Below, piece after piece: positions 1 through 50,602 of a stretch of 64,000 nucleotides of DNA. Position numbers and translations under genes: made by a program. Below the pieces are notes generated by a model. That model was not told the origin of the DNA and searched no databases. It saw nothing but the letters and a program-made list of their open reading frames with translations. The stretch is taken from positions 24,693-88,692 of the forward strand of contig JAGWWP010000002.1 in the NCBI GenBank assembly GCA_018970325.1, in the 5' to 3' direction. Within the stretch, counting starts at the first letter, position 1, and every line of letters starts with the position of its first letter. This DNA is from Cyanobacteria bacterium REEB446 (lineage in GTDB: Bacteria > Cyanobacteriota > Vampirovibrionia > LMEP-6097).

Positions 1-679
1 TCACATGTTCGTAATGAAAGGTGTGCAAAATAGGTGGACAATGCTCTGGTGGTAAATTAGGTACCTCATCATTACTATTAACGACTCTCCAACTGACTCC
101 TACAGCATTGTCAAAAGTTGTCGCAAAATTTGCGTCGCCAACCCTTGGAGCAGCAAAACTGTATAGGGAGGCGTCTGTGTGTATAGTGTTAGTGACTATG
201 TCACAGATATTTAGAGTGGCTAACGCTCCACCTAGACTATGACCAGTTATCCAGAGGTTTTTATAAGTATTTGCTGATAATTTAGACAAATAATTCATGA
301 CTGTTTTTTGAGGAGAATCTACTTTGGCGTCACCAGTGACGTACATTTGATCAAATCCCATTGCTACTTTTTCATTGTTTTTCAGGAAGCTGCTTTTGAT
401 TTGATCAAATTTAGCATCCTCTATCCATTCCTCTATATCTTGAGTGCCACGCCAAACTATATAAATGTCTTGTAGTTTACTTGCAATAAAGCCTAAAGGC
501 ATATTATCTTTTTCATATACGGCATATATACTACTTTCTAATGCATAGCCATGAGGCAATTGCCAGCTTTGCTTAGTCTGCCAAGCTTTATATTGAGCAT
601 AAGCTTCATTGGATAGATTCGCTAATTCCAAGGCTTTATCTATGTTAAAGTTCACTGGAAAACTATTATAAGAAACCAT
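1..679 (-). CDS. Lipase class 3 (alpha/beta-hydrolase, GHSLGGALA nucleophile elbow); its C-terminus runs off the window start
   Basis: The minus-strand frame opens with ATG (cat at 677-679) and reads MVSYNSFPVNFNIDKALELANLSNEAYAQY...IYIVWRGTQDIEEW...LWITGHSLGGALATL...FAAPRVGDANFA. This is the lipase_3 pattern (WRGT, GHSLGGA, PRVG). There is no stop before position 1, so it is absent from the ORF track. Confidence 0.6.
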   Translation of the reverse strand, partial: MVSYNSFPVNFNIDKALELANLSNEAYAQYKAWQTKQSWQLPHGYALESSIYAVYEKDNMPLGFIASKLQDIYIVWRGTQDIEEWIEDAKFDQIKSSFLKNNEKVAMGFDQMYVTGDAKVDSPQKTVMNYLSKLSANTYKNLWITGHSLGGALATLNICDIVTNTIHTDASLYSFAAPRVGDANFATTFDNAVGVSWRVVNSNDEVPNLPPEHCPPILHTFHYEHV

Positions 680-891
680 AAAAACAAGTTTAACATGATT
701 ACTTATAGACCTTAGCTTAAAAAAATTTACTGATTTCTTCTTCTGACCAAGTGAATAATATTTTTCTTATTTACTTGATTAGGAGAATTATTGATATGCA
801 ACGATTCAGGCACAAGAGTAGCTGATATTACCTTTCTTGTCTCATAAAGAAATTCTTGATACCTGTGACTGAGTTAAAATGTAATTAGTTT

Positions 892-2082
892 ATGCTTTTA
901 ACCTCAAATCCTATTTTAAATAAAGCTCTAGAGGGGCAGCGAATCACTTCAGAGGAAGCTATTGAGCTTTTTGAGAATGCTGATCTTTTAGAATTAGCTT
1001 ATGTAGCTAATGAAAAGCGCCAGAAGCTCCACCCAGATAGCGAAGCAGTCACTTATGTGGTGCAGCGTAATATTAATTACAGTAATGTTTGCACGGCGAG
1101 CTGTAGCTTTTGTGCATTTTATACTTACCCTAGCGTAGATGATAAATCTAATCCAGCTTATACGCTAGATTATGAGACACAGATAAAACCTAAGATTGCA
1201 GAACTTGTTGCTATAAATGGTACTGAGATTCTTTTACAGGGAGGGCATAATCCTGAATTAGGTTTGGATTATTATCAGGAGCTATTTATTAATATTAAAA
1301 GGGATTTTCCTTCTGTAACATTACATGCTCTTAGTCCTTCTGAAATTAATCATATTGCTGAAAAATATTTCACTTCGGTCTCTGCTTACGGGGATGGTAC
1401 TAAAATAGCTAATATTAAAGAACCTAGTTTAGAGGAAATTAAGATAGTACTTTTAGCTTTAAAAGAAGCTGGTATGGATTCTCTACCAGGTGCTGGTGCT
1501 GAAATCCTTACGGAGAGAGTGAGGTTAATTATTGCTCCTAAGAAAATCAATTCGCAGCGTTGGCTGGATATAATGGAAGCTGCTCACAGCATAGGTTTTA
1601 AATCATCAGCGACTATGATGTATGGTCATGTGGAGACTTATGAAGACAGAGTGGAGCATTTAAGAGCCTTACGTGATTTACAAGATAGGACTAATGGTTT
1701 TACAGCCTTTGTACTCTGGAATTTTCAGCGTGGGGATACGCCACTTGGGAAAATCATGAATGCTTATGAACGTGATGGGAAATTACCTAAATATAATAAA
1801 GATTCATCTGGTGAAGAATATTTGCGTTCGCTTGCTGTTTCTCGGATATTCTTAGATAATTTTAAAAATTTCCAAGCTAGTTGGGTGACGCAAGGTCATG
1901 AAATCGGGCAGCTTGCTTTAAATTTTGGCTGTAATGATTTAGGTGGAAATATGATGGAGGAAAATGTCGTCTCCGCTGCTAATACGACATATAGGACTTC
2001 AGTTCAGCAAATGGAATATTTTATTGAGGCTTGCGGGCGCAAGGCTGCACAGCGGGATACTCAATATAATTTAGTAAATTAA
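892..2082 (+). CDS. Radical SAM enzyme of the MqnC/MqnE family (futalosine-route menaquinone biosynthesis)
   Basis: 396 aa with an N-terminal CxxxCxxC cluster (NYSNVCTASCSFCAFY). Length and overall pattern fit the MqnC/MqnE/CofH-like radical SAM group. The sequence alone cannot separate MqnC from MqnE. Confidence 0.55.
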   Translation: MLLTSNPILNKALEGQRITSEEAIELFENADLLELAYVANEKRQKLHPDSEAVTYVVQRNINYSNVCTASCSFCAFYTYPSVDDKSNPAYTLDYETQIKPKIAELVAINGTEILLQGGHNPELGLDYYQELFINIKRDFPSVTLHALSPSEINHIAEKYFTSVSAYGDGTKIANIKEPSLEEIKIVLLALKEAGMDSLPGAGAEILTERVRLIIAPKKINSQRWLDIMEAAHSIGFKSSATMMYGHVETYEDRVEHLRALRDLQDRTNGFTAFVLWNFQRGDTPLGKIMNAYERDGKLPKYNKDSSGEEYLRSLAVSRIFLDNFKNFQASWVTQGHEIGQLALNFGCNDLGGNMMEENVVSAANTTYRTSVQQMEYFIEACGRKAAQRDTQYNLVN

Positions 2083-2120
2083 GGGACGAAAACGCAGAAA
2101 TTGAAGATTGCGAGTAGTCC
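2083..2120 (+). repeat. Fragment of the RPE-like palindromic mini-repeat (3' half type ...gacgaaaacgcagaaattgaagattgcgagtagtcc)
   Basis: It matches the 3' half of the elements at 7241-7293 and 19620-19667 and begins immediately after the stop codon of the upstream CDS. Confidence 0.6.
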
Positions 2121-2172
2121 TAATGAAGTCTTTTTATTAATGATAAAATCTATATTTCAGATAACATAAATT

Positions 2173-3267
2173 ATGCATTACCAAGGGATTATTCATAGAT
2201 ATAAAAAATATTTACCAGTGACTGAGACTACGCCAATCGTTAGTCTCTGTGAGGGGCGTACGCCACTTGTGGAAGCAATGAATATAGCTAAGCTTACTGG
2301 CGTGAAGGGCTTAAAAGTTTTCTGTAAAATAGAGGGACTTAATCCATCTGGATCTTTTAAAGATAGAGGGATGACTATGGCTGTGTCTAAGGCTGTAGAG
2401 AAAGGGGCTAAAAAAATCATCTGCGCAAGTACTGGTAATACTAGTGCTGCTGCTGCTGCTTATGCCTCAAGAGTAAGATCTATGGGCTATGAAATGGAAT
2501 CTTTTGTAATTATTCCAGCAGGTTATGTGGCACTTGGAAAGCTCTCACAGGCTATGATCTATGGCTCTAAGGTTATTCAAGTTAGGGGTAATTTTGATGA
2601 TGCTTTAAATATAGTGAAATCTCTATCTGAAAATTATCCTATTGAGTTAGTTAATTCATTAAATCCTTATCGTATTGAGGGACAGAAGACCGGAGCTTTT
2701 GAGCTAGTGGATGAGCTTGGGGAAAGTCCAGATTATCTCTTTTTGCCTGTAGGTAATGCAGGTAATATAACAGCTTACTGGAAAGGTTTTAAAGAGTATG
2801 TTCCAGAGAATCAGAAAAGACCTCATATGTATGGCTTTCAAGCAGAGGGGGCTTCACCTATAGTAAATAAGCGAGTTTTTGATAAACCAGAAACTATAGC
2901 TACCGCTATTCGTATTGGTAATCCAGCGAGCTGGGAGCAGGCTAATAGGGCTTTAAGTGAGTCTAATGGTCATATAGATTCAGTTACAGATCGTGAGATA
3001 TTAGACGCTTATAAACTCTTGCATCAAATGGATGGTATAGCCTGCGAGCCCTCTTCTGCGACTGGAGTTGCTGGTCTTTTAAAAGCTGCTAAGCAAGGCT
3101 TAGTAAAAGAGAATTCTACTGTGGTTTGTATACTCACTGGTAATGGTTTGAAAGATCCTTCTACTGCGATTAAAGAAGTGGATATGGATGAAAATGAGAC
3201 TTATCCAGCTGATGCTAATGAGATTATTAAGGTGCTTGGACTGGAGAGTCTTTCTGGGGTAGTTTAA
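2173..3267 (+). CDS. thrC: Threonine synthase
   Basis: 364 aa with the PLP-lysine motif LNPSGSFKDRGMT and a ThrC-like fold pattern throughout. Confidence 0.9.
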   Translation: MHYQGIIHRYKKYLPVTETTPIVSLCEGRTPLVEAMNIAKLTGVKGLKVFCKIEGLNPSGSFKDRGMTMAVSKAVEKGAKKIICASTGNTSAAAAAYASRVRSMGYEMESFVIIPAGYVALGKLSQAMIYGSKVIQVRGNFDDALNIVKSLSENYPIELVNSLNPYRIEGQKTGAFELVDELGESPDYLFLPVGNAGNITAYWKGFKEYVPENQKRPHMYGFQAEGASPIVNKRVFDKPETIATAIRIGNPASWEQANRALSESNGHIDSVTDREILDAYKLLHQMDGIACEPSSATGVAGLLKAAKQGLVKENSTVVCILTGNGLKDPSTAIKEVDMDENETYPADANEIIKVLGLESLSGVV

Positions 3268-4592
3268 GTAGATCCATGGATTATTAATAATCTCAAGCTC
3301 AATTCCAAATCCCCAGTCTCTAAAACTCTTCTTTCTAAGTTTGGCACAGCTGAGTTCAGAAGCTGTTTATAAAAGGCTTTGAGCTCATATAGGCATTGAT
3401 TTTTAAAATCGCCCTGTATTTTATATTGGTCAGCTAAAAAATAATCTAATTCATAGAGGTCATTTAGATTGTGGCTAAATTTTTCTAGAGCTTTTATTTG
3501 AGATGCTTCTGGCTTGGTATTGTTGAACTTAAGAAATTTTTCTTTAAGGATAATTTTTCTTACTAATGTTTCTCTGGATTTATTTAGAGATTCATAGTTA
3601 GCTAAATAATCAGGATCATTCTCTATAATATGTTTAAAATTTTTCAGCAGCATTTCTTGTTCCTGAGAGAGTTTGAATCTTGCCAGTTGATTTATCTGCT
3701 GTTGAATTTCTAGTTCAGTTTTAAATACATTTGTTAGAAAAAGCAGAGTAATTAGACTAAGTAGAATAAGTGAATTTGGAAGATTTATACTGCTCCGAAT
3801 CTTAGTTAAAAAAGGTGTTGTAGATTTTTTTGTTATTGATTGCTTCTCATTGACTGGGTTTGACATGATCTTATCTGCTTCTTTCTTTTGCTCGTGACAT
3901 TTAGGGAAAAATAGGCTGATAACAGTTCCTTGATTAATCAGGGAGCTGATATCAAGTTCTATATCATTATATTTAAGTATCTCGGCCACGGATTTTAAAC
4001 CATGCCTCGAAGTTCTAGGTCTTAGATTTTTAAATGATTCTTCTAGATCTAGGTTGAAACTGTTTTCTAGTGATAATATTTTGAGCTTCCAGTAATCTTT
4101 AGAATCATCAAGTGTGATTTTGACCTCTCCATTACTGTGTTTTAGAGCATTTTCGATTAAATTAAAAACAGCTTTAGCTATTAAAGAGAAGTTTCCATAT
4201 ATTAGGGCGTTATTTTGGTATATATTATCCTCAGTTTTAACTCTTTTTAAAGTAAAGATTTCCATTAACTCAAGCTCTATGAGATCTTTTAAATCTATAA
4301 TGGATTTTGAATAATTGTGAAACTCTGCTTGAGTAGTATTCTGTGAATCTTGTATCTCTGTAAAAATCTCTCTAAAGTGATATTCACTGCCTTTTAAGAA
4401 ACTTATTAAATGATTTAAATCGTTAAATTCTTCGCTGCTAAGAACAGATTTTCCTTCTTCGGAGAGCTTTTTACTAATATCTTTTAATGAGCTATTCGCT
4501 AAGCTGAATAGATTTGCAGAGTCGTGAATATATGAACTTGTGAGTGCAAGTAAGTTATGAAGCTGATCTCTACTAAGTTTTTTAGCTTTCAT
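3264..4592 (-). CDS. Hypothetical membrane protein with an HATPase_c-like (GHKL ATPase) segment and atypical topology
   Basis: 442 aa. An N-box-like LIENALKHSNGEVKI is followed by a G-rich HGLKSV segment, then a TM helix (LILLSLITLLFLTNVF) after the ATPase-like part. No clear H-box. Last gene of the minus-strand cluster 3264-9700. Confidence 0.3.
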   Translation of the reverse strand: MKAKKLSRDQLHNLLALTSSYIHDSANLFSLANSSLKDISKKLSEEGKSVLSSEEFNDLNHLISFLKGSEYHFREIFTEIQDSQNTTQAEFHNYSKSIIDLKDLIELELMEIFTLKRVKTEDNIYQNNALIYGNFSLIAKAVFNLIENALKHSNGEVKITLDDSKDYWKLKILSLENSFNLDLEESFKNLRPRTSRHGLKSVAEILKYNDIELDISSLINQGTVISLFFPKCHEQKKEADKIMSNPVNEKQSITKKSTTPFLTKIRSSINLPNSLILLSLITLLFLTNVFKTELEIQQQINQLARFKLSQEQEMLLKNFKHIIENDPDYLANYESLNKSRETLVRKIILKEKFLKFNNTKPEASQIKALEKFSHNLNDLYELDYFLADQYKIQGDFKNQCLYELKAFYKQLLNSAVPNLERRVLETGDLELSLRLLIIHGST

Positions 4593-4602
4593 TTTTTTGA
4601 TT

Positions 4603-5775
4603 TTACTGTTTTTTTAGCTTGAATATAAAAAATATCTGAATAACACTTAAGAGAAGTAAGCTGAGTATGGAAAAACATATATAAATAAAATAACTTAAAT
4701 TGTTAAAGCTAAACTCTGAGAGGATCTTGTAGAGAAAGTTAAAGCCGAATGGCAGAATGCTTACTCCTAAAAGAATTTTTAGGCTATAGGTGAAAACACT
4801 AAAAGGGTTTTTATTATTAAGAAGAAATATTGGTGAAAATACTTTAGCGAAAATAACTAAAATAATGCTGCCCAGTAGGCTTATAATAAATATAAACTGT
4901 GAAACACTGTCAATGAAAGCAAGTATCAATCCGGGAAAGTAGCCATAATTATTTAATATCGCTGTCCAGCTCTCAATAAGCAGTGTTTCGTGGTTGTGGA
5001 AGATAGAAAAGCCCAGTGATTCATTATTAAGTAGGCTGTTAAATCCATTATTTATTAAGCTAAAGCCACTGAAAATAAATTCCCAGATACTCTCCAGCAT
5101 TAATAGCAAGGCTATGCTTAGAAATAAGCTACTGAAAAGGCTTTTAAATTCATGATTATCTTTTTGAGTGCTTTTAGAATTACTTTTGAAAAAAGCTATG
5201 TCTAGAATTTTAAACATACTAGAGAGTATTAATAATACGAGAATAATTTTCTGTAAAAATGAGAAAGTACTCTCTGCAAGTGGTGTTCTCATTATTTTTT
5301 CTAGAATTATCATTAAATTAGTATCAGTAGAGCTATTCGTTAAATCTTCATTTAGGAAATTTATACAGTCGATATGTGCCTGTAAATTACTATTTAAAAT
5401 CTCTTCACTAGTCTTACGCCTTTGATATTCAAAAAAACCAGTAAAAGTGTCTCTAAGAGCGTTATTGACACCATCTTGTACTTGATATTTCACGTTAATT
5501 ATCCCATCAGCTAAGCCGATAATTTTATTAGCCGCACCTAGTGTGAAAGTTCTTTCTATAGTCTGTTTACTAAGTTCGGTAGATCTTAAAATGAAATCAT
5601 CAGGTGTTTCTAAGGGTGCTAGGGGACTGCTACCTGTATGAAAATATATGCGGCGATTATCTATTTCAGGATATTTATTTACTTGCCCGTCAGCTATTCT
5701 GATAATATCGCCAATCTTGAAAGCATGACTAGGAGGGCTAATTAGGGAAAATAAAAGTAGGAAAATTATCAGCAT
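4603..5775 (-). CDS. Hypothetical polytopic membrane protein (signal peptide, ~170-aa periplasmic segment, 5-6 C-terminal TM helices)
   Basis: 390 aa. N-terminal MLIIFLLLFSLISPPSHA looks signal-like and the C-terminal half is strongly hydrophobic. No recognisable catalytic motif. Confidence 0.45.
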   Translation of the reverse strand: MLIIFLLLFSLISPPSHAFKIGDIIRIADGQVNKYPEIDNRRIYFHTGSSPLAPLETPDDFILRSTELSKQTIERTFTLGAANKIIGLADGIINVKYQVQDGVNNALRDTFTGFFEYQRRKTSEEILNSNLQAHIDCINFLNEDLTNSSTDTNLMIILEKIMRTPLAESTFSFLQKIILVLLILSSMFKILDIAFFKSNSKSTQKDNHEFKSLFSSLFLSIALLLMLESIWEFIFSGFSLINNGFNSLLNNESLGFSIFHNHETLLIESWTAILNNYGYFPGLILAFIDSVSQFIFIISLLGSIILVIFAKVFSPIFLLNNKNPFSVFTYSLKILLGVSILPFGFNFLYKILSEFSFNNLSYFIYICFSILSLLLLSVIQIFFIFKLKKQ

Positions 5776-5776
5776 T

Positions 5777-6376
5777 TTAATTCTCTTTTATGGATAAGAT
5801 TTTTTCTAATTTTTGAGTCTGAGTATTTATAAGTATTTCTATGATTAAATTACGTGAAGAATTTTCTGTATCAGTGAAAGTTTCCTTCCCAAAGCAGATA
5901 ATTTTTACTAAGACTTTATCTATATTCTCAGTGTAAATTTTATTTATTTGAAACTCACTGTTGATCTTGTTTTGACTACGAGCTTCTATTTCTTGTATGA
6001 GGTACTCCGTGAAGAAAGTCTCTTCAGTATTCTCTTTTAGCCACTTGGAGTGTTCTTCCTGTCTGTTTGTGTATTTAGAAAATAGCTTAGAGAGATATGC
6101 TTGAGTGAAATTTTCTATATTGAAATCACTGCTTCCATTGATAGATAAAGCTTTTTGGGCTCTAGTGTTTTTAGAATTATCCTTGTTTTTTAAAACACTG
6201 CTATCAATAAAAACTCTATTTCTACTGTTTAAAAGCTTATTACAGTTATGAATTTCACACATTGCTAATGCTAGAGATATAGATAGAAAGAGGATTATAC
6301 TTAGCAGTATTTTTACTATCGAAGGCAGGTAAAGTATTTTAAGCAAATATTTTAAAGAGTTATATTTTAAGACCAT
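5777..6376 (-). CDS. Hypothetical bitopic membrane protein
   Basis: 199 aa with a single N-terminal TM (LPSIVKILLSIILFLSISLALA). It overlaps the upstream gene's end by 10 nt, which indicates translational coupling within the cluster. Confidence 0.4.
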   Translation of the reverse strand: MVLKYNSLKYLLKILYLPSIVKILLSIILFLSISLALAMCEIHNCNKLLNSRNRVFIDSSVLKNKDNSKNTRAQKALSINGSSDFNIENFTQAYLSKLFSKYTNRQEEHSKWLKENTEETFFTEYLIQEIEARSQNKINSEFQINKIYTENIDKVLVKIICFGKETFTDTENSSRNLIIEILINTQTQKLEKILSIKEN

Positions 6377-8700
6377 ATATTTTTCTCCTGCATTTTTTCT
6401 AGTGTCTGTCTTGCGATGGACATATTATCGAGAAAGCTGGCATGGCTAGAATCTTTTAGATTAGCAGCTTTAATTTCATTAAAGATTAACTGCCTCTCTC
6501 TCACGACTTCTGCACTGGAGTTCGTTAATATTAGTTCATCTTGATCTGCTTTAAATTTAATTAAACCAGAGAATTTAGAAGTTTTAAGTAGTGCTGTACC
6601 CCTGTCTTTAATCTCTTGCGATTCTAGTAGCTTCAGTTCTCGCTCATTAAGATTTAAGTGGCTGCCCAACTCAGCTTTATCTGTATTTTCTTTACATTGA
6701 AAGATGAAACTGCTTGCAGCAGAGGAGTGTATATCACGAGTTAAATCTGAGGGTTTTTGAGAAATAGTCCATAAGCCTAAATTCATAGCTCTGCCAGTTC
6801 GAGCTAGCTTGCTGATAAGCTTTTTACTAAGAGGGTTCTCTTCTTCATAAATTAATTTCCAAGCTTCATCTATCACTAAATAAATGGTGTTGTCTAGTTC
6901 TCTTACAGCGTTCTCTATTTGCATGAAAATATTTTCTAAGCAGAAGTTAGTCAGGGCTTTGTTTTTTTCGATACTATGAAAATTAACTAAGCTTATATTT
7001 TTTTTAAATAATATTAAGTTCTTAAATGACTCTGGGGAATTATAAATTTCCCCACCCATATAAGCAGTAAAAAATTCCCAGCCTAGTAGTGTACTATCTA
7101 AAATAACAAACTTGGCATTAGAGCACTGTTGCCGAACTCCAATTTCTGCGTTTTCGTTGTCCTCATGATCCTCATGTACCCGCAGTACATTGCGGTCATT
7201 CGTCCTCCTCAGCCTTGAACTTGCACGTTCGGCAACAGTGCTATTCGGGGATTGCTCGCAATCTTCAATTCTTGCGTTTTCGTCGTCCTCGTGATTTAAA
7301 CTTCTTTTAATTAAAAGCTTTACTGCAAGTGACTTTCCTGAGCCAGAGTCACCTATGAAATTAATAGATTTATTATTGCAGAATTGAGTATTTTCAGGTG
7401 TGAAATATACTAGGGATCTATCATCTAATTTATAACCAATTAATGCTCCATTTTCCATGCAGGTTCTATCTTCTAGAAATGGATTAAAATAATTCAGGTC
7501 TTTAGCTGTTATTAAGAATGGGAGATTTTGTATTTTTTCTGTATAGAGTTTTCTTTGCAAATATTTAGCTTCATTGAAACTAAGTAGTGACTGACTAGTA
7601 GATATTTTGAGGAGATTTTTTTCTAGTATTTCTTTATTAGGGCTGTATAATTTCAGGATAATTTGCAGGTTTGCGATGAAGCTATTATCATAGATCTCAT
7701 GGTAAAGAGACTTTAGGGAATCTAAGTGACTTTTATTACTAAGAGCTGCTCTGGTAAAGCTTTGAAGACAATTTATCTTATGGTTAATTAGTGATTTATC
7801 TCGATTCAGATTTCGTTCTTGTAAAATGATGCATAATTCACTAGTGCAGCTTAAGCTTTTCAGGAAATTATTTAATGATTCGAAGCTAGCATTTTCAAGC
7901 TCAAGGTCTTTTAGAGAGAGGCATTTAATATATTCATGTGTCTTAATATAATTAATTCTTTCTTTGAAATCAGTCAAATCATTCTGTTTGTCTGAAATGA
8001 TCTCAAAACTTATTTTATTTGCAACACTAAAGAGCTGTAGGTGATAATTTATTTGCTGTAAAGTCTTTTCTGAATTACTGTTCACCTCAATTTCTAAAAA
8101 CCTACATGGATGAAATATCTTCTCTTCATATTGGGAAGCCCTTTCTTTAGCTGGATTCATTTCTTGAATATTTTCGGCATTGATGAAAATTCTGAATTTA
8201 ATTTTGGTTTTTGAATTTCGATATTCTAGTATATTTTCTAAAAGCTTCTGCCAGAGATGGTTTAATTGATCTATTTCAAGTTTGCTTGCTGTAGAGTAGT
8301 TAATTAATTTTTTAATTCTATATCTTTTACTGTAGGATTTTACTTTTTGAGAGAGAGGCAGAAAGTTTAGTTTTAAGGCTGATTTATTAAATAGAGATTT
8401 AGTATTTCTATCTAAGCAAGACTGTGATTGGTTTTGAGGTTTAACTAATAACGGATAACTTATATGTTTTATAAAGAAACTATTTTCGCTAAGATTCAGT
8501 TTAGTACTGCGATAGCAGATCCAGAGAAAGGTAAAGCTGCTTAGAATCCATATGGCAAGTGGGCTATCTATTTGTAGAGCTAGCAGCTGTATTAAATAGA
8601 GATATAATCCTAGAAATAAAACTCCTAGTGAAATTTCTTTTAAGCTGAGTCCACTAAAAATTTCTATATCTTTTTTTAAGGCTAAGTGTTTTTTTATCAT
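6367..8700 (-). CDS. Membrane-anchored P-loop ATPase of the VirB4/TraC - HerA/FtsK superfamily; carries two in-frame RPE-like insertions
   Basis: 777 aa. Two N-terminal TM helices are followed by Walker A INFIGDSGSGKSLA, Walker B YLVIDEAWKL and a downstream ARTGRAMNLGLWTISQKPSDL segment (VirB4-like RK..TQ motif). The repeat-encoded insert ...ERASSRLRRTNDRNVLRVHEDHEDNENAEIGVRQQC... lies between Walker A and Walker B. Confidence 0.55.
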   Translation of the reverse strand: MIKKHLALKKDIEIFSGLSLKEISLGVLFLGLYLYLIQLLALQIDSPLAIWILSSFTFLWICYRSTKLNLSENSFFIKHISYPLLVKPQNQSQSCLDRNTKSLFNKSALKLNFLPLSQKVKSYSKRYRIKKLINYSTASKLEIDQLNHLWQKLLENILEYRNSKTKIKFRIFINAENIQEMNPAKERASQYEEKIFHPCRFLEIEVNSNSEKTLQQINYHLQLFSVANKISFEIISDKQNDLTDFKERINYIKTHEYIKCLSLKDLELENASFESLNNFLKSLSCTSELCIILQERNLNRDKSLINHKINCLQSFTRAALSNKSHLDSLKSLYHEIYDNSFIANLQIILKLYSPNKEILEKNLLKISTSQSLLSFNEAKYLQRKLYTEKIQNLPFLITAKDLNYFNPFLEDRTCMENGALIGYKLDDRSLVYFTPENTQFCNNKSINFIGDSGSGKSLAVKLLIKRSLNHEDDENARIEDCEQSPNSTVAERASSRLRRTNDRNVLRVHEDHEDNENAEIGVRQQCSNAKFVILDSTLLGWEFFTAYMGGEIYNSPESFKNLILFKKNISLVNFHSIEKNKALTNFCLENIFMQIENAVRELDNTIYLVIDEAWKLIYEEENPLSKKLISKLARTGRAMNLGLWTISQKPSDLTRDIHSSAASSFIFQCKENTDKAELGSHLNLNERELKLLESQEIKDRGTALLKTSKFSGLIKFKADQDELILTNSSAEVVRERQLIFNEIKAANLKDSSHASFLDNMSIARQTLEKMQEKNIWS
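7124..7240 (-). repeat. Full-length RPE-like palindromic element (117 bp) inserted in-frame in the ATPase gene
   Basis: It has a perfect 13-bp terminal inverted repeat, cactgttgccgaa ... ttcggcaacagtg. The core gaaaacgcagaaattggagtt / gcaagttcaaggctgaggaggacgaatgaccgc is shared with the other copies. Confidence 0.8.
7241..7293 (-). repeat. Second, partial RPE-like element in tandem with the first (3' half type)
   Basis: Its reverse complement, cacgaggacgacgaaaacgcaagaattgaagattgcgagcaatccccgaatag, matches the 2083-2120 and 19620-19667 variants. Confidence 0.7.
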
Positions 8701-8722
8701 TGGAGTTGTGTGCCAGTCTTTT

Positions 8723-9175
8723 TTATTTGATTTGTATCGCTGCCATGCCGCGAGATAAATTACTCAGTAAGTTATAGCCGCCGATGAAAATCGCGATTAA
8801 GGGTGATATTTGTTGTAGTAATTCAGCTGCCTGAGCTATAAGAGCAGAAAAACGCTCAAAACTATCTAGGACACCTGAATTTAAGTAAGAATCGGAAAAA
8901 ACTACTGAGACATTAAAATCTGAAGCCAGATCTTTAATGATTTTAAAAAGTATAGGTAAGATTTGAATTAAGAATATTGCAAAAACCGTGGTGCCAACTG
9001 AAGTTAAGATGCTGTAATGGTGAGTCTTGGCTTTAAACATATGAGTCGAAATGAGATTAACACTTGGGCTTGTTAATACTTTTATGCGATCAAAATATTT
9101 ATGAATGAGTTTATGGCTCAGGTAATGAATGCCGATGTAGCTTATGGTACTAATAGTAATTATGCTGATTTGCAT
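8723..9175 (-). CDS. Small hydrophobic membrane protein (pilin/VirB2-like topology is possible; no motif support)
   Basis: 150 aa with a hydrophobic N-terminus, a central TM (TTVFAIFLIQILPILF) and a hydrophobic C-terminal segment. Lies immediately upstream of the ATPase in the same operon. Confidence 0.35.
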   Translation of the reverse strand: MQISIITISTISYIGIHYLSHKLIHKYFDRIKVLTSPSVNLISTHMFKAKTHHYSILTSVGTTVFAIFLIQILPILFKIIKDLASDFNVSVVFSDSYLNSGVLDSFERFSALIAQAAELLQQISPLIAIFIGGYNLLSNLSRGMAAIQIK

Positions 9176-9178
9176 GAT

Positions 9179-19468: not shown

Positions 19469-19518
19469 TAGTTTTACTCCTCAAAAACCTAATTTTAGCA
19501 CGCTGCTATTACTTGACG

Positions 19519-19667
19519 CTGAAATTGAAGTTCGGTAATAGTACCCAAAGGGGACTGCTCACAAACGTGCAAGGGAAACGCAGAAATTGAAATTCGGCAA
19601 TAGTACAAGGGGAATGCTCACAAACGAACAAGGGAAACGCAGAAATTGGAGTTTGCGAGCAGTCCCC
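19519..19667 (+). repeat. Tandem array of about three degenerate RPE-like elements between fba and rnj
   Basis: gaaattgaagttcggtaatagtac...ggggactgctcacaaacgtgcaagggaaacgcagaaattgaaattcggcaatagtacaaggggaatgctcacaaacgaacaagggaaacgcagaaattggagtttgcgagcagtcccc. The palindromic termini are ggggaNtgctcacaaac / gtttgcgagcagtcccc. The last copy abuts or overlaps the rnj stop codon. Confidence 0.7.
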
Positions 19668-23472: not shown

Positions 23473-25086
23473 TTAGTGTCTGTGAGAGGTTTCTAGTAGG
23501 GCTGAATTTAATCTTTCGATGATTTTTTCTTTACCTAAAAGTACTGCAATAAACCCTAGTTCAGGCCCACTAGTTTTAGCACTAATGGCTACGCGAATTG
23601 GGAAAAATAGTTTTTTACCTTTGAGGTTTAATTTCTCACCAATAGAATTAATACCATTTTTAATTGAATCTTGATCAGCAAAATCTAGAGAACCACTTTC
23701 GATAAGGGATATGAATTCATGGATAACTTCTTTACCTTCTTCGGCGATCGTAATTAAAGTACTATCATCAAGTTTAAAGTCTTCAAAAAAATAGTTAATA
23801 TGTTCATCTATCTGTTCAAATTTATCTAGGCTTTCTTGAATGGATTCAATTATTAACTGGATTTGAGATGAATTAAATAGAGAATTATTTTCTAAATTGA
23901 ATCTTGAAAATCTAGAAACATGAGTTAATATTTCTTCATAGTTTAGTTTGCTTATGTAGTCACGGTTATACCAGTTTAATTTTTGAATATCGTAGATAGC
24001 TGGGCTTTTACTAACGCTAGTTATCTGAAAATCTTCAGCAGCTTCAGTGATAGTAAATATTTCACCATACTTAGCTGAATTATAACTCGTACCTAAAAGG
24101 TAATTAACGAGAGCCTTTGCTAAATAGCCTTGAGTTTTATAAGTGTTAACAGAAGCGATATCACCATGTTTACGTTTAGAGAGCTTCTGTTTATCCTTCG
24201 TGAAAATTAAAGGTAGGTGCCCAAATTCGGGAATCGGAAAATTTAAAGCTTCATAAATAGCGATCTGTTTCGCTGTATTACTTATATGATCTTCTCCTCT
24301 CAGAATGTGTGAAATCTGCATTTCATAATCATCTATCACTACTGCAAAATTATAGAGAACCTGCCCTGTGGATTTCTGGATAACTGGGTCTCCGCCAAGG
24401 TCTCTAGTATTAATGGATACTTCACCTCTGATTAAATCTAACCAAGTGATTACATGGTCTGCTCCTAGATTTAATCTAACGACATAGGGCTTCCCTTCTT
24501 TAAGTAATTTTTCTGAATCATCTTTGGAGACATCTCTTGATCGATTATCATATTTCTCTATCTCTTTACGAGCTTTCTGAGCTTCACGCATAGCGTCTAA
24601 TTCTTCTACTGTCGCAAAACATCTATAAGCTTTACCCTCATTAATTAATCTTTCTATATAACTGCTATGCACGGCTTCTCTGAGTGATTGTCTGACTATT
24701 CCATCTTCACCTAAACCTACGAGAGTTTCTCGGGCACGTAGCGGAACTCCAATTTCTGCGTTTTCGTCGTCCTCATGATCCTCATGCACACCTAGTGCAC
24801 TGCGGTCTTTCGTCCTCCTCAGCCTTGAACTTGTTCGTTCGGCTACGTGCCCTTCTGGCGTATCCCAAGAGATATTTAACCATTTAAACCCTTCTAATAT
24901 TTCTTGAGTAAACTGTTCTTCGCTTCTTTGTCTATCAGTATCTTCTAGTCTAAAGAAAAACTCACCTTGGTGTTTTTTTGCGAAAAGTACATTGTAGAGA
25001 GCTGTTCTGACGGTACCTAAGTGTAGATTACCTGTTGGGCTAGGTGCTATTCTGGTTCTTACTTTAGGAAAGGCGTTTAAGGGCAT
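23473..25086 (-). CDS. gltX: Glutamyl-tRNA synthetase carrying an in-frame RPE-like insertion
   Basis: HIGH region RIAPSPTGNLHLGTVRTAL and KMSKS region KLSKRKHGD are present. An extra ~45 aa, ...HVAERTSSRLRRTKDRSALGVHEDHEDDENAEIGVPLRARETLVGLGEDG..., sits between the class I catalytic-core motifs and is encoded by the repeat at 24732-24852. Confidence 0.85.
   Translation of the reverse strand: MPLNAFPKVRTRIAPSPTGNLHLGTVRTALYNVLFAKKHQGEFFFRLEDTDRQRSEEQFTQEILEGFKWLNISWDTPEGHVAERTSSRLRRTKDRSALGVHEDHEDDENAEIGVPLRARETLVGLGEDGIVRQSLREAVHSSYIERLINEGKAYRCFATVEELDAMREAQKARKEIEKYDNRSRDVSKDDSEKLLKEGKPYVVRLNLGADHVITWLDLIRGEVSINTRDLGGDPVIQKSTGQVLYNFAVVIDDYEMQISHILRGEDHISNTAKQIAIYEALNFPIPEFGHLPLIFTKDKQKLSKRKHGDIASVNTYKTQGYLAKALVNYLLGTSYNSAKYGEIFTITEAAEDFQITSVSKSPAIYDIQKLNWYNRDYISKLNYEEILTHVSRFSRFNLENNSLFNSSQIQLIIESIQESLDKFEQIDEHINYFFEDFKLDDSTLITIAEEGKEVIHEFISLIESGSLDFADQDSIKNGINSIGEKLNLKGKKLFFPIRVAISAKTSGPELGFIAVLLGKEKIIERLNSALLETSHRH
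24732..24852 (-). repeat. Full-length RPE-like element (~121 bp) in-frame within gltX
   Basis: A 16-bp TIR, gggcacgtagcggaac ... gttcggctacgtgccc, bounds the shared core gttcaaggctgaggaggacgaaagaccgcagtgcac...catgaggatcatgaggacgacgaaaacgcagaaattggagtt (reverse complement). Confidence 0.8.
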
Positions 25087-30983: not shown

Positions 30984-31023
30984 TACCAAGCTTAGAAATA
31001 AACATCCAAAACACAGCTTTATG

Positions 31024-31075
31024 AGGGGCGTGTAGCTGATGAAAACACAGAAATTGGAGTTCCGCTACACATGCC
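31024..31075 (+). repeat. Short remnant of the RPE-like element
   Basis: ggggcgtgtagctgatgaaaacacagaaattggagttccgctacacatgcc contains the conserved core with a mini-palindromic flank (gtgtagc / gctacac). Confidence 0.55.
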
Positions 31076-38447: not shown

Positions 38448-38454
38448 TGCTAGA

Positions 38455-38512
38455 GACCGCTGTACAACTTGCATTTTCAAGACTGAGGAGAACGAATGAC
38501 CGCAATGTACTC
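38455..38512 (+). repeat. Partial RPE-like element (5' half type) between pmbA and tRNA-Pro
   Basis: gagaccgctgtacaacttgcattttcaagactgaggagaacgaatgaccgcaatgtac matches the 5' half of the copy at 40094-40151. Confidence 0.65.
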
Positions 38513-40093: not shown

Positions 40094-40289
40094 GAGACCA
40101 CTGCACAACGTGCAGTTTCAAGGCTGAGGAGGACGAATGACCGCAGTGTACGGCTAATTTCCAGCGATGCCGAGCATGCGACATTAATGTTATATGCGAG
40201 CAAGCGGAAATACAAGCTTGATTTATCAAGCTTACATGAGGATCATGAGGACGACGAAAACGCAGAAAATGGAGTTGTGCAATGGTCTC
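40094..40289 (+). repeat. Composite RPE-like element split by a ~75-bp nested insertion; 16-bp TIR gagaccaYtgcacaac
   Basis: The 5' part is gagaccactgcacaacgtgcagtttcaaggctgaggaggacgaatgaccgcagtgtac. An unrelated 40152-40224 segment follows, containing a perfect 20-bp palindrome aagcttgatttatcaagctt. The 3' part is catgaggatcatgaggacgacgaaaacgcagaaaatggagttgtgcaatggtctc. In other copies the two halves are contiguous. Confidence 0.7.
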
Positions 40290-49024: not shown

Positions 49025-50602
49025 TTACGCACTTGGTATTAGTCTTTGAAAAATTTGAATATAGTAATCATCTTCGACGAAAACATAACGATTGTAAATT
49101 AAGCTTTTACCATCAGGACTCCAGTGTATGCCATTGATTGGCGCTTCTCTGCACTGTTGTAGAGCTTCAATTTCTGCGTTTTCGTCGTCTCCATTGATGT
49201 TAATTGTATTGCCATCTTGCGCGTTAACTAAATATATCTGGTTGTTAGACACTGCTGAAATATACTTATCATCAGGGCTGAGATTGAATTGTGACTGGAC
49301 AGAGTATTTGAAATTTGTTATTTGTTTAACAGGCTGATTTGTGATTGTATTTTTAGTATTTTCAGCACTGTTCACTGAGTAGATTTGAACGATACCATTA
49401 TCATCTTTCATTAGAAAATAGATATGGCTTCCATCTGCTGAGCTGCGTAGCCTAAAACGTGGTCCCTGAAGCCCAGGGTATTTCCTATCTGTAGTAAAAG
49501 TAATTCTTCTTTGTGTGAATCCTGCTGGTACATTAGGTCTGCTATTTAAACTCCCTTCTAGTGGTTTATCTGTAAGTGATTGAGTTATATCATTTGGAAT
49601 ATCTGCTATAAAAACTTCTGTAACTAAAGTCCCATCTAGTGAACGGACATTTCCTTGAAAGGCTATGGCTCGTGTCTGCTGTGAACCATTGTGAACAGTG
49701 CTATCGTCTTTCGTGTAACCGTTTTTACCCAGCCAGCACTCATCGAAAGCTCGTTCTATTTCATCACTACCGAATTTAGGATTTTCTGTAACCTCAGCTG
49801 CGACTACCGCGAAGTAAGTTCCTCTGAAATTCTCTTCAGGGCACTGCTCGCGAACTCCAATTTCTGCGTTTTCGCCCGCCTCATGATCCTCATGAATATT
49901 CTCTATCATCGTCATCACGCCGATAGTCCTCAAGTCTTTTCTTTCACTTGAAGAAGTTTTTTCTAAACATTCTATAAGGTAATCGTTATAGGTAAAGCTA
50001 ATCCACTTGCCATCAGCACTCCAAGTATGAGCATGGGTTCCACCTCTTAAAGCTCCTTTGGTAAGTGGTTCTTGAATATTCCTACCTTCCGCATGATAAC
50101 ACTGCTGCCGAACTCCAATTTCTGCGTTTTCGTTGTCCTCATGATCCTCATGTACCTTGAGTACATTGCGGTCATTCGTCCTCTTCAGCCTTGAACTTGC
50201 ACGTTTGGTAACAGTGTCATTGTAAGATGATTGCGAAACTCCAATTTCTGCGTTTTCGCCCGCCTCATGACTCCCTGAAATAATCGCCCCGAATCTTCTC
50301 GTGAAGCTATAAGGTTTTTCTTCGTCGCAATTTAAAAGACCGTGAATGAAAATGATGCTGTCATTAACAGGGTTCCAAGCTGCTGCCCCTACCCCCGGTC
50401 CATAGATACTTTGATTTTTGGTTTTATAGAGTTCAATAATTTCTTTAGTCACAATATTTAACTTACAGATACTTCCAGTGCGGCTTATGTGAGTATCATC
50501 GTTGCGAGTATCGAAGACTAGCCACTTGCCGTCTGGGGAGAATATTTGTGTGGCATTGAGAGTGTGACCGTGTTTCCCGTTTGTTAATTGTATTTCGTGC
50601 AT
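49025..50602 (-). CDS. Beta-propeller (TolB/PD40-like) hypothetical protein carrying four in-frame RPE-like insertions
   Basis: Repeated SPDGKW / SADGKW / SPDGKS blade motifs. Inserts encode HEAGENAEIGV, KRASSRLKRTNDRNVLKVHEDHEDNENAEIGVRQQC, HEDHEAGENAEIGVREQC and DDENAEIEALQQC. Confidence 0.5.
   Translation of the reverse strand: MHEIQLTNGKHGHTLNATQIFSPDGKWLVFDTRNDDTHISRTGSICKLNIVTKEIIELYKTKNQSIYGPGVGAAAWNPVNDSIIFIHGLLNCDEEKPYSFTRRFGAIISGSHEAGENAEIGVSQSSYNDTVTKRASSRLKRTNDRNVLKVHEDHEDNENAEIGVRQQCYHAEGRNIQEPLTKGALRGGTHAHTWSADGKWISFTYNDYLIECLEKTSSSERKDLRTIGVMTMIENIHEDHEAGENAEIGVREQCPEENFRGTYFAVVAAEVTENPKFGSDEIERAFDECWLGKNGYTKDDSTVHNGSQQTRAIAFQGNVRSLDGTLVTEVFIADIPNDITQSLTDKPLEGSLNSRPNVPAGFTQRRITFTTDRKYPGLQGPRFRLRSSADGSHIYFLMKDDNGIVQIYSVNSAENTKNTITNQPVKQITNFKYSVQSQFNLSPDDKYISAVSNNQIYLVNAQDGNTININGDDENAEIEALQQCREAPINGIHWSPDGKSLIYNRYVFVEDDYYIQIFQRLIPSA
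49146..49197 (-). repeat. RPE-like fragment (copy 1 in the beta-propeller gene)
   Basis: ctctgcactgttgtagagcttcaatttctgcgttttcgtcgtctccattgat. Confidence 0.6.
49841..49905 (-). repeat. RPE-like half element (copy 2 in the beta-propeller gene)
   Basis: ggcactgctcgcgaactccaatttctgcgttttcgcccgcctcatgatcctcatgaatattc. Confidence 0.65.
50099..50215 (-). repeat. Full-length RPE-like element (copy 3 in the beta-propeller gene, 117 bp)
   Basis: cactgctgccgaactccaatttctgcgttttcgttgtcctcatgatcctcatgtaccttgagtacattgcggtcattcgtcctcttcagccttgaacttgcacgtttggtaacagtg. Near-identical to 7124-7240. Confidence 0.8.
50230..50275 (-). repeat. RPE-like half element (copy 4 in the beta-propeller gene)
   Basis: ttgcgaaactccaatttctgcgttttcgcccgcctcatgactccc. 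Confidence 0.6.

Follow-up and report, generated by a model that had tools for sequence, protein, structure and literature searches.

A P-loop ATPase gene of Cyanobacteria bacterium REEB446 carries two adjacent repeat units between its Walker A and Walker B motifs and remains open, which raises the question of where these units came from and how two of them arrived at a single site. The gene (6367..8700, minus strand, 777 aa) lies in a 64,000-nt stretch of contig JAGWWP010000002.1 (positions 24,693 to 88,692), referred to below as the window. The initial annotation described the units as two tandem elements similar to the Rickettsia palindromic elements (RPEs), inserted in a VirB4-like ATPase, and proposed either an insertion hot spot or an internal duplication. 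Our analysis favors, with a probability of roughly three in four, that the 171-nt insert consists of two separate insertions of a miniature inverted-repeat transposable element (MITE) into one 5-bp target, which reads CTAAA/CTAAT on the coding strand and is located in the loop after the Walker A helix.

The insert and its empty counterparts

When compared to the orthologs with an empty site, the 171 nt of the insert correspond to 57 aa (aa 471-527, 7120-7290). As had been described, it lies between Walker A (GDSGSGKS, 7330..7353, minus strand, aa 450-457, whose alignment columns are invariant) and Walker B (YLVIDEAW, 6859..6882, minus strand, aa 607-614), and the reading frame is open across the 777 aa. 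Its larger part is a full copy of the element (7122..7242, plus strand, in the family orientation; minus-strand translation STVAERASSRLRRTNDRNVLRVHEDHEDNENAEIGVRQQC), with terminal inverted repeats (TIRs) of subtype 1. The left TIR, AGCACTGTTGCCGAAC (7122..7137, plus strand), is 100% complementary to the right TIR, GTTCGGCAACAGTGCT (7227..7242, plus strand), so that a perfect 16-nt inverted repeat encloses 89 nt. The full copy with a perfect TIR is therefore present where it had been annotated, although it measures 121 bp instead of 117 and its TIR 16 nt instead of 13. On the left, the 5-bp target-site duplication reads ATTAG (7117..7121; CTAAT on the coding strand) and corresponds to CTAAA or ATAAT in the empty-site orthologs; its right copy, ATTCG (7243..7247), matches at 4 of 5 positions and doubles as the spacer to the left TIR of the second unit. 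This second unit is a truncated copy of TIR subtype 3 (7248..7290, plus strand; translation EDDENARIEDCEQSP), which has kept its left TIR, GGGATTGCTCGCAATC (7248-7263), and the left core and has lost its right half, and which is probably the older of the two; its match to the repeat extends to 7295 through microhomology with the host sequence (nhmmer/repeat). The GC content of the insert region is 44-52%, compared to ~30% in the flanks, and the 16-mer TIR was found four times in the window when up to three mismatches were allowed, against 0.2 matches expected by chance. The unit folds better than shuffled sequences (z = -4.0 as DNA and -3.6 as mRNA); an Rfam scan of the whole window returned two tRNAs only, the element matching no RNA family. 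An example of the peptide stretch encoded by the element is HEDHEDDENAEIGV.

The two units are adjacent and directly repeated, as would be expected if a single inserted element had been internally duplicated in tandem. We consider this second option of the initial annotation very improbable. The half-copy does follow the full copy directly, 7243-7295 aligning to its first 53 nt, but the identity over these 53 nt is only 74%. The TIR subtypes of the two copies (AGCACTGTTGCCGAAC and GGGATTGCTCGCAATC) differ at 7 of 16 positions, and the truncated copy resembles the subtype-3 copies found elsewhere more than its neighbor, the TIR GGGATTGCTCGCAATC being present also at 2106-2121, at 19651-19666 and at many other loci. 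Furthermore, the spacer has the length of the target duplication of the family, as it does at 18 junctions (see below), and subtype 3 occurs alone at this very site in other strains.

The states of the site were read from 21 aligned orthologs, in the stretch between KLLIKRxFN and AKFIILDSTLL. All the contigs fetched have their genes in the same order around the ATPase, which confirms that these genes are true orthologs. Eight of them, including all four outgroups, have an empty site and an uninterrupted spacing from Walker A to Walker B (P0009, P0010, P0013, P0014, P0017, P0019, P0023 and P0024), and the DNA of the empty sites, as in P0010 (TTTAAC-CCTAAA-GCT) and P0013 (TTCAAT-CATAAT-GCC), thus contains a single copy of the target 5-mer. 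A left-end remnant of 17 aa is present in P0004-P0007, and remnants of 8 aa in P0008, P0011 and P0016, while P0012 and P0015 hold partial copies of other kinds; the window and P0001 share the 57-aa form, which is accompanied by 27 further aa in P0002 and P0003. Subtype 3 is found alone as a left end in P0011 and P0007 and as a right half in P0015. Close strains therefore display at least eight fill states, produced by at least two different elements at one 5-bp target, and the hot spot that had been proposed is borne out. Once the insert columns had been removed, neighbor joining yielded a tree in which the most distant four orthologs, which are all empty, are basal and the states are mixed among the close strains. 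The empty outgroups and the varied states of close strains indicate that the ancestral site was empty and that the insert is derived and is turning over fast.

The open frame and the hydrophilic peptide could also be those of a native, fast-evolving linker of the ATPase. This explanation is practically untenable, since the empty sites of the orthologs and outgroups already refute it in the alignment; moreover, the same DNA recurs ~15 times within the window and more than 240 times in related genomes, inside and outside genes, the GC content jumps at the insert, and both TIRs and a target-site duplication are present. Elsewhere in the same gene, the ATPase of P0023 (46% identity) contains a remnant of the element family (...ENAEIGVPLHA) at alignment columns ~186-200, which would represent an independent insertion.

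The element family and the origin of the pair

Related loci were collected from a species-representative genome collection by means of an exact 25-mer of the left core. Among the matches listed there were more than 106 exact core loci, all of them from five genomes of Vampirovibrionia, Melainabacteria or Caenarcaniphilales, one of which is mislabelled as Proteobacteria; the window is ~92% identical at the DNA level to two of the five. A profile built from three copies of the window yielded 248 element matches in the window plus 106 loci, which amount to 818 kb in total. In 89 full copies, an average of 14.1 of the 16 TIR positions are complementary between the two ends. The 5-mers on either side are the same in 27 of these copies and agree at 4 of 5 positions in another 23, against 1.1 and 5.5, respectively, when the pairing is shuffled. 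The raised flank identity (0.62-0.74) is limited to exactly 5 positions. The family therefore has 16-nt TIRs and generates a 5-bp target-site duplication. Its members come in sizes of 121, 202 and ~60-75 nt, and their sole open frame encodes a 40-aa peptide, with no transposase gene. Short length, TIRs, a target-site duplication of fixed length and many dispersed, polymorphic copies are all features of MITEs, and we regard the element as a lineage-specific non-autonomous transposon (MITE) family, that is, a new family of a known kind. Our searches of the literature library available returned nothing on such elements in Melainabacteria or Caenarcaniphilales. A scan of a viral collection gave one match, a left-end remnant at 3626-3650 of the IMG/VR contig IMGVR_UViG_3300042866_002883, within the span of an open reading frame (ORF, 671-3931) for an HsdR-like R subunit of a type I restriction enzyme. 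This contig looks like a defense-type island (HsdR, two SNF2 helicases, AAA_14/DUF4143 and AAA_21), no phage genes were seen in it, and it is probably bacterial and not viral.

Head-to-tail pairs separated by one duplication length recur across this family. Where a right TIR is followed by a left TIR (40 junctions), the gap between them has a sharp peak at 5 nt, with 18 junctions at exactly this value and 24 within 4-6 nt. The commonest layout is that of the ATPase site, a full copy followed by a spacer and by a variably truncated left-end copy (16 cases, plus 7 with a right half first), and left ends with variable inner end-points are common in the family as a whole. The search for further tandem pairs that the initial annotation had recommended was thus productive, in the related genomes as well as in the window, where a second tandem spans 50098-50272. 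Arrays of three head-to-tail copies were also observed in intergenic positions, at 1741-2116 of locus L067, with the spacer CCTCCT at each junction, and at 19516-19666 of the window.

The two-insertion reading could then be put in the following terms. A subtype-3 copy would have inserted first, and a subtype-1 copy would later have entered the duplicated 5-mer directly adjoining the resident's left TIR, after which the right half of the older copy would have been deleted. The states seen in other strains would derive from further deletions and from recombination between the two direct left halves; P0004 is 1 nt off the product predicted for such a recombination. The mobilizing enzyme would be a putative transposase with a 5-bp staggered cut and a preference for targets beside a resident left end. 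P-loop folds in general would place the loop that comes after the Walker A helix away from the nucleotide-binding site, and the insert could be tolerated there for that reason, its peptide being probably a translated passenger instead of a functional module.

A different route to the same arrangement would be that the composite of 1.4 units (full copy, 5-nt spacer and left part of a second copy) moved as one, by read-through or one-ended transposition from a tandem donor. The recurrence of the layout at many unrelated loci, the presence of the same rare TIR subtypes in both members of some pairs and the frequency of left ends with variable inner end-points would all be in line with such a move. 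However, P0011 and P0007 have subtype 3 by itself at the ATPase site and P0015 has its right half by itself, so that a complete subtype-3 copy must once have been present there independently of subtype 1, and the same composite sequence was not seen at any second sampled locus. We therefore find the composite route unlikely in the present case. It could be argued as well that no targeting is needed, random insertions simply accumulating in one of the few loops that tolerate them: the gene is conserved and intact, the insert occupies the loop directly after the Walker A helix, and the copies within ORFs have been filtered for frame and absence of stops. Such an explanation by selection seems to us quite improbable, because the re-use of the target is nucleotide-exact, with a 5-mer in common, the pairs are always head-to-tail, and ~60% of the 5-nt-spaced pairs are outside ORFs, beyond the reach of this filter.

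Several observations do weigh against two separate insertions as formulated above. The empty P0010 is sister to P0008, which bears a remnant, and P0008 and P0011 have a deletion junction in common but different TIR subtypes; these conflicts require excision, inter-strain recombination or gene conversion, and the order of events is consequently not provable. Some tandem partners at other loci (L069, L088 and L002) have rare TIR subtypes in common, which fits local duplication or hopping better than independent arrival, and we conclude that local hopping, duplication or gene conversion also occur in the family. The counts themselves are affected by ascertainment, as collecting loci with a left-core 25-mer inflates the number of left halves and copies that are orthologous between genomes each entered the count. 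Neither an autonomous partner nor a transposase appeared in the 818 kb sampled, where TIR pairs 0.6-4 kb apart with matching flanks were sought; there were 18 pairs at this distance, none with matching flanks, and all of them can be accounted for by separate small copies. Variation within the element is highest in the TIRs, which is unusual for transposase binding sites. Finally, the structural argument for the tolerance of the insert is weak, as the AlphaFold model of the ATPase is poor overall, with a mean predicted local distance difference test (pLDDT) score of 52.6 and values below 50 for the insert (aa 465-526) and for other regions too.

Insertion in coding sequence and the complementary ends

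For the behavior of the family in genes, a copy was considered to be inside an ORF when a stop-free frame reached at least 150 nt on both sides of it, which is not equivalent to a curated gene call; by this definition ~40% of the sampled copies are inside ORFs. The canonical length is 121 nt (77 of 89 copies) and that of the long form 202 nt, so that with the 5-bp duplication the added length is 126 nt (42 codons) or 207 nt, both multiples of three. Length plus 5 is divisible by three in all 37 full copies inside ORFs, and one orientation and phase is common to 95 of the 98 copies in ORFs. The peptide in this shared frame (...RTSSRLRRTNDRSVLxVHEDHEDDENAEIGV...) is stop-free, hydrophilic and acid-rich. 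Read in the opposite orientation, 61 of 77 copies offer a second frame free of stops, yet this frame has been used only three times, and the intergenic copies between co-directional genes show an orientation bias of 45 to 16, for which reason stop avoidance alone cannot account for the orientation bias. Stops in the used frame are present in none of 34 coding copies versus 9 of 43 noncoding ones (21%; p ~0.004, hypergeometric estimate). As the coding copies are free of stops and some of the noncoding ones are interrupted, these data argue that the insert is translated, and by the same comparison removal at the RNA level or ribosomal bypass of the insert is disfavored. The diversity at codon positions 1/2/3 was 0.135/0.154/0.156 in coding and 0.132/0.152/0.151 in noncoding copies and gave no signal of purifying selection on the peptide.

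Recurrent in-frame insertion in unrelated genes with one conserved peptide frame, the behavior that characterizes RPE-type elements, is thus found here. A protein search with the ATPase retrieved 24 orthologs (695-786 aa) together with ~35 unrelated proteins that match the insert alone and cover at least 16 families, including CysN, MnmE, GuaA, MtnA, a GH31 glucosidase, CcsB, GltD and epimerases. Such inserts inflate and fragment homology searches, this query having retrieved proteins of at least 16 unrelated families by way of the insert and nothing else, and they will confuse the annotation and the phylogenomics of the Caenarcaniphilales genomes that carry the element.

The ends of the element behave differently from its core. 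A comparison of 78 distinct 121-nt copies gives a pairwise diversity of 0.36 in one TIR and 0.33 in the other versus 0.077 in the 89-nt core, and Watson-Crick pairing is kept at 89% of TIR positions, compared to 65% (maximum 68%) in shuffles. Double-sided changes occur at most of the 16 positions, for example G-C in 49 copies and C-G in 22, or A-T in 47 and C-G in 27. Possible causes are the existence of discrete subfamilies, selection on the terminal stem, or arm-to-arm conversion in a folded strand. An insertion of the core into pre-existing host palindromes was considered as a source of the variable complementary arms and rejected, as the empty ATPase site has no such arms. A likeness to the inverted repeats of the Tn3 family (GGGG start and 5-bp duplication) was also dropped, the ends being complementary for ~16-17 nt only. 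It is conceivable, although we think it rather doubtful, that the terminal stem is kept as a structure and not as a sequence, and that a structure-specific enzyme directed at element ends mobilizes the element by way of a cruciform or folded single-strand intermediate. This idea starts from TIRs that are 4-5 times more variable than the core, with compensatory double changes at most positions, and from the strict head-to-tail re-insertion and the intergenic orientation bias. To our knowledge, such an intermediate has not been described for MITEs. If it existed, the family would also be shaped, through its lengths (121+5 and 202+5 divisible by three) and its hydrophilic frame, to colonize coding sequence.

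Further copies, the host gene and known systems

According to a blastn search with the unit, the window contains ~15 copies of the element, and those in frame are found in three of its genes, the ATPase gene, gltX and a gene for a DUF3748/TolB-like beta-propeller protein. In gltX (glutamate-tRNA ligase; 23473-25086, minus strand; TIGR00464, 494 bits), which is normally an essential gene, a single full copy of 121 bp (24732..24852, plus strand), flanked by the duplication TTCTC/TTCTG, adds 42 aa in frame at aa 79-120; this clean copy stands directly after the WDTPE motif. The DUF3748/TolB-like gene (49025-50602, minus strand) contains the second tandem in frame, which is formed by a full 121-bp copy (50098..50218, plus strand), the 5-nt spacer ATTGT and a truncated copy starting at 50224, and which spans 50098..50272. 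With the left-end remnants at 49150-49194 and 49840-49896 added to the two units of the tandem (50098-50218 and 50224-50272), this gene has four in-frame copies or remnants and its 525-aa frame is still open.

The remaining copies include an intergenic long form of 196 nt, compared to the usual 202 nt (40094..40289, minus strand), whose extra central segment of ~81 nt carries small hairpins of its own (AAGCTTGATAAATCAAGCTT and GAGCCACTTACATGGCTC). In P0002 (L111) the center of the long form replaces the short center of the copy at the ATPase site. Internally deleted forms are represented by an intergenic array of three short hairpins of ~60 nt (19516..19666, minus strand), by an intergenic 71-nt form that retains both ends (16771..16841, minus strand) and by a short hairpin form at 31021-31074. 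Left-end remnants begin at 49150, 49840 and 50224 and occupy 2106-2121, and a right-end remnant occupies 38453-38511. Adjoining the 71-nt form, the region 16841-16900, viewed on the minus strand, contains a perfect GC-rich hairpin (AAAGACAAAACCCCGC TTGT GGCGGGGTTTTGTCTTT) flanked by A/T runs, which looks like a bidirectional terminator.

The ATPase encoded by the host gene belongs to the AAA_10 / HerA-VirB4 superfamily and has hydrophobic helices at its N-terminus. With the HerA, VirB4 and TraC ATPases it shares the Walker A and B motifs, a Pfam match to AAA_10 (1e-9) and weak NCBIfam matches to HerA and to the VirB4 of integrative and conjugative elements (ICE). It differs from them in that these NCBIfam scores are far below the family cut-offs (VirB4_plasma gives 29 bits versus a cut-off of 590, and the HerA models score alike), in the absence from its family matches of PF03135 (CagE/TrbE/VirB), the VirB4 N-terminal domain family, in having neighbors without a family match, and in its locus beside rplC. 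The best solved relative is HerA (3e-9). The name VirB4-like given in the initial annotation holds at the level of the superfamily alone, and by its sequence the protein would not belong to the VirB4 / TraC family of type IV secretion ATPases. The gene has a conserved chromosomal position next to rplC, among ordinary housekeeping genes, and the order kept in related strains is rplC, NMT1_2, 173 aa, 150 aa, ATPase, 161/199 aa, 390 aa and HATPase_c. The neighbors are small hydrophobic or multi-pass proteins and showed no Pfam or NCBIfam match. In the window the conserved block (3264-9700, minus strand), with hydrophobic or multi-pass proteins of 173, 150, 199 and 390 aa plus HATPase_c, near rplC, loosely recalls a minimal secretion or conjugation-type module, a likeness that nothing confirms. 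A second presence/absence polymorphism was noticed in the ATPase gene at ~8389-8442 (aa 87-104), where KPQNQSQSCLDRNTKSLF is missing in P0002, P0003, P0012 and P0014-P0016; this stretch shows neither a high GC content nor a match to the repeat family.

The most obvious comparison is with the RPEs, which are presented as the extreme case of in-frame MITE insertion in a review of prokaryotic MITEs (PMC10969869). Like them, the present element is ~100-150 bp long, is able to form hairpins and has many copies per genome, a large share of which are in frame in unrelated housekeeping genes, with one translatable peptide frame and host genes that remain intact (PMC10969869). It differs from RPEs in its host phylum (Caenarcaniphilales, Vampirovibrionia), in its clear 5-bp target-site duplication and discrete TIR subtypes, and in a presence or absence that varies among strains with ~90% protein identity, which indicates recent activity. 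The term RPE-like that had been applied to it is thus adequate for a dispersed palindromic repeat inserted in frame, as an analogy and not as a statement of sequence relatedness. The RPE style of colonizing essential genes is thus not peculiar to Rickettsia but has arisen too in a free-standing lineage of non-photosynthetic relatives of cyanobacteria. Clean TIRs, a 5-bp duplication and strain turnover in public metagenomes make this family a tractable natural system for studying the way in which these elements move, the reasons why certain protein loops accept them and the frequency of their loss.

Other MITE families suitable for comparison are the Correia element of Neisseria, the cyanobacterial Nezha and the intragenic copies of ERIC and QMITE1. 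In common with canonical MITEs (PMC10969869), the element is short, encodes no transposase, has TIRs and a target-site duplication, and is multi-copy, with internally deleted derivatives and occasional in-frame fusions. Unlike in canonical MITEs, its TIRs are the least conserved part (0.33-0.36 vs 0.08 in the core) and co-vary so as to stay complementary, its canonical lengths are frame-neutral and ~40% of the sampled copies are in ORFs. With respect to the junctions, the right end abuts a left end head-to-tail with a spacer of the duplication length, as in the IS30 and IS3/IS21-type elements. These insert next to their own ends and form abutted-end junctions with spacers of 2-4 bp, usually between units of the same element, whereas the present junctions have a 5-bp spacer and join partners that are often of different subtypes, one of the two being usually truncated. 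Frame-neutral unit lengths, head-to-tail re-insertion adjacent to resident ends, and ends that are hypervariable but complementary are, in our opinion, the three traits that make this family noteworthy.

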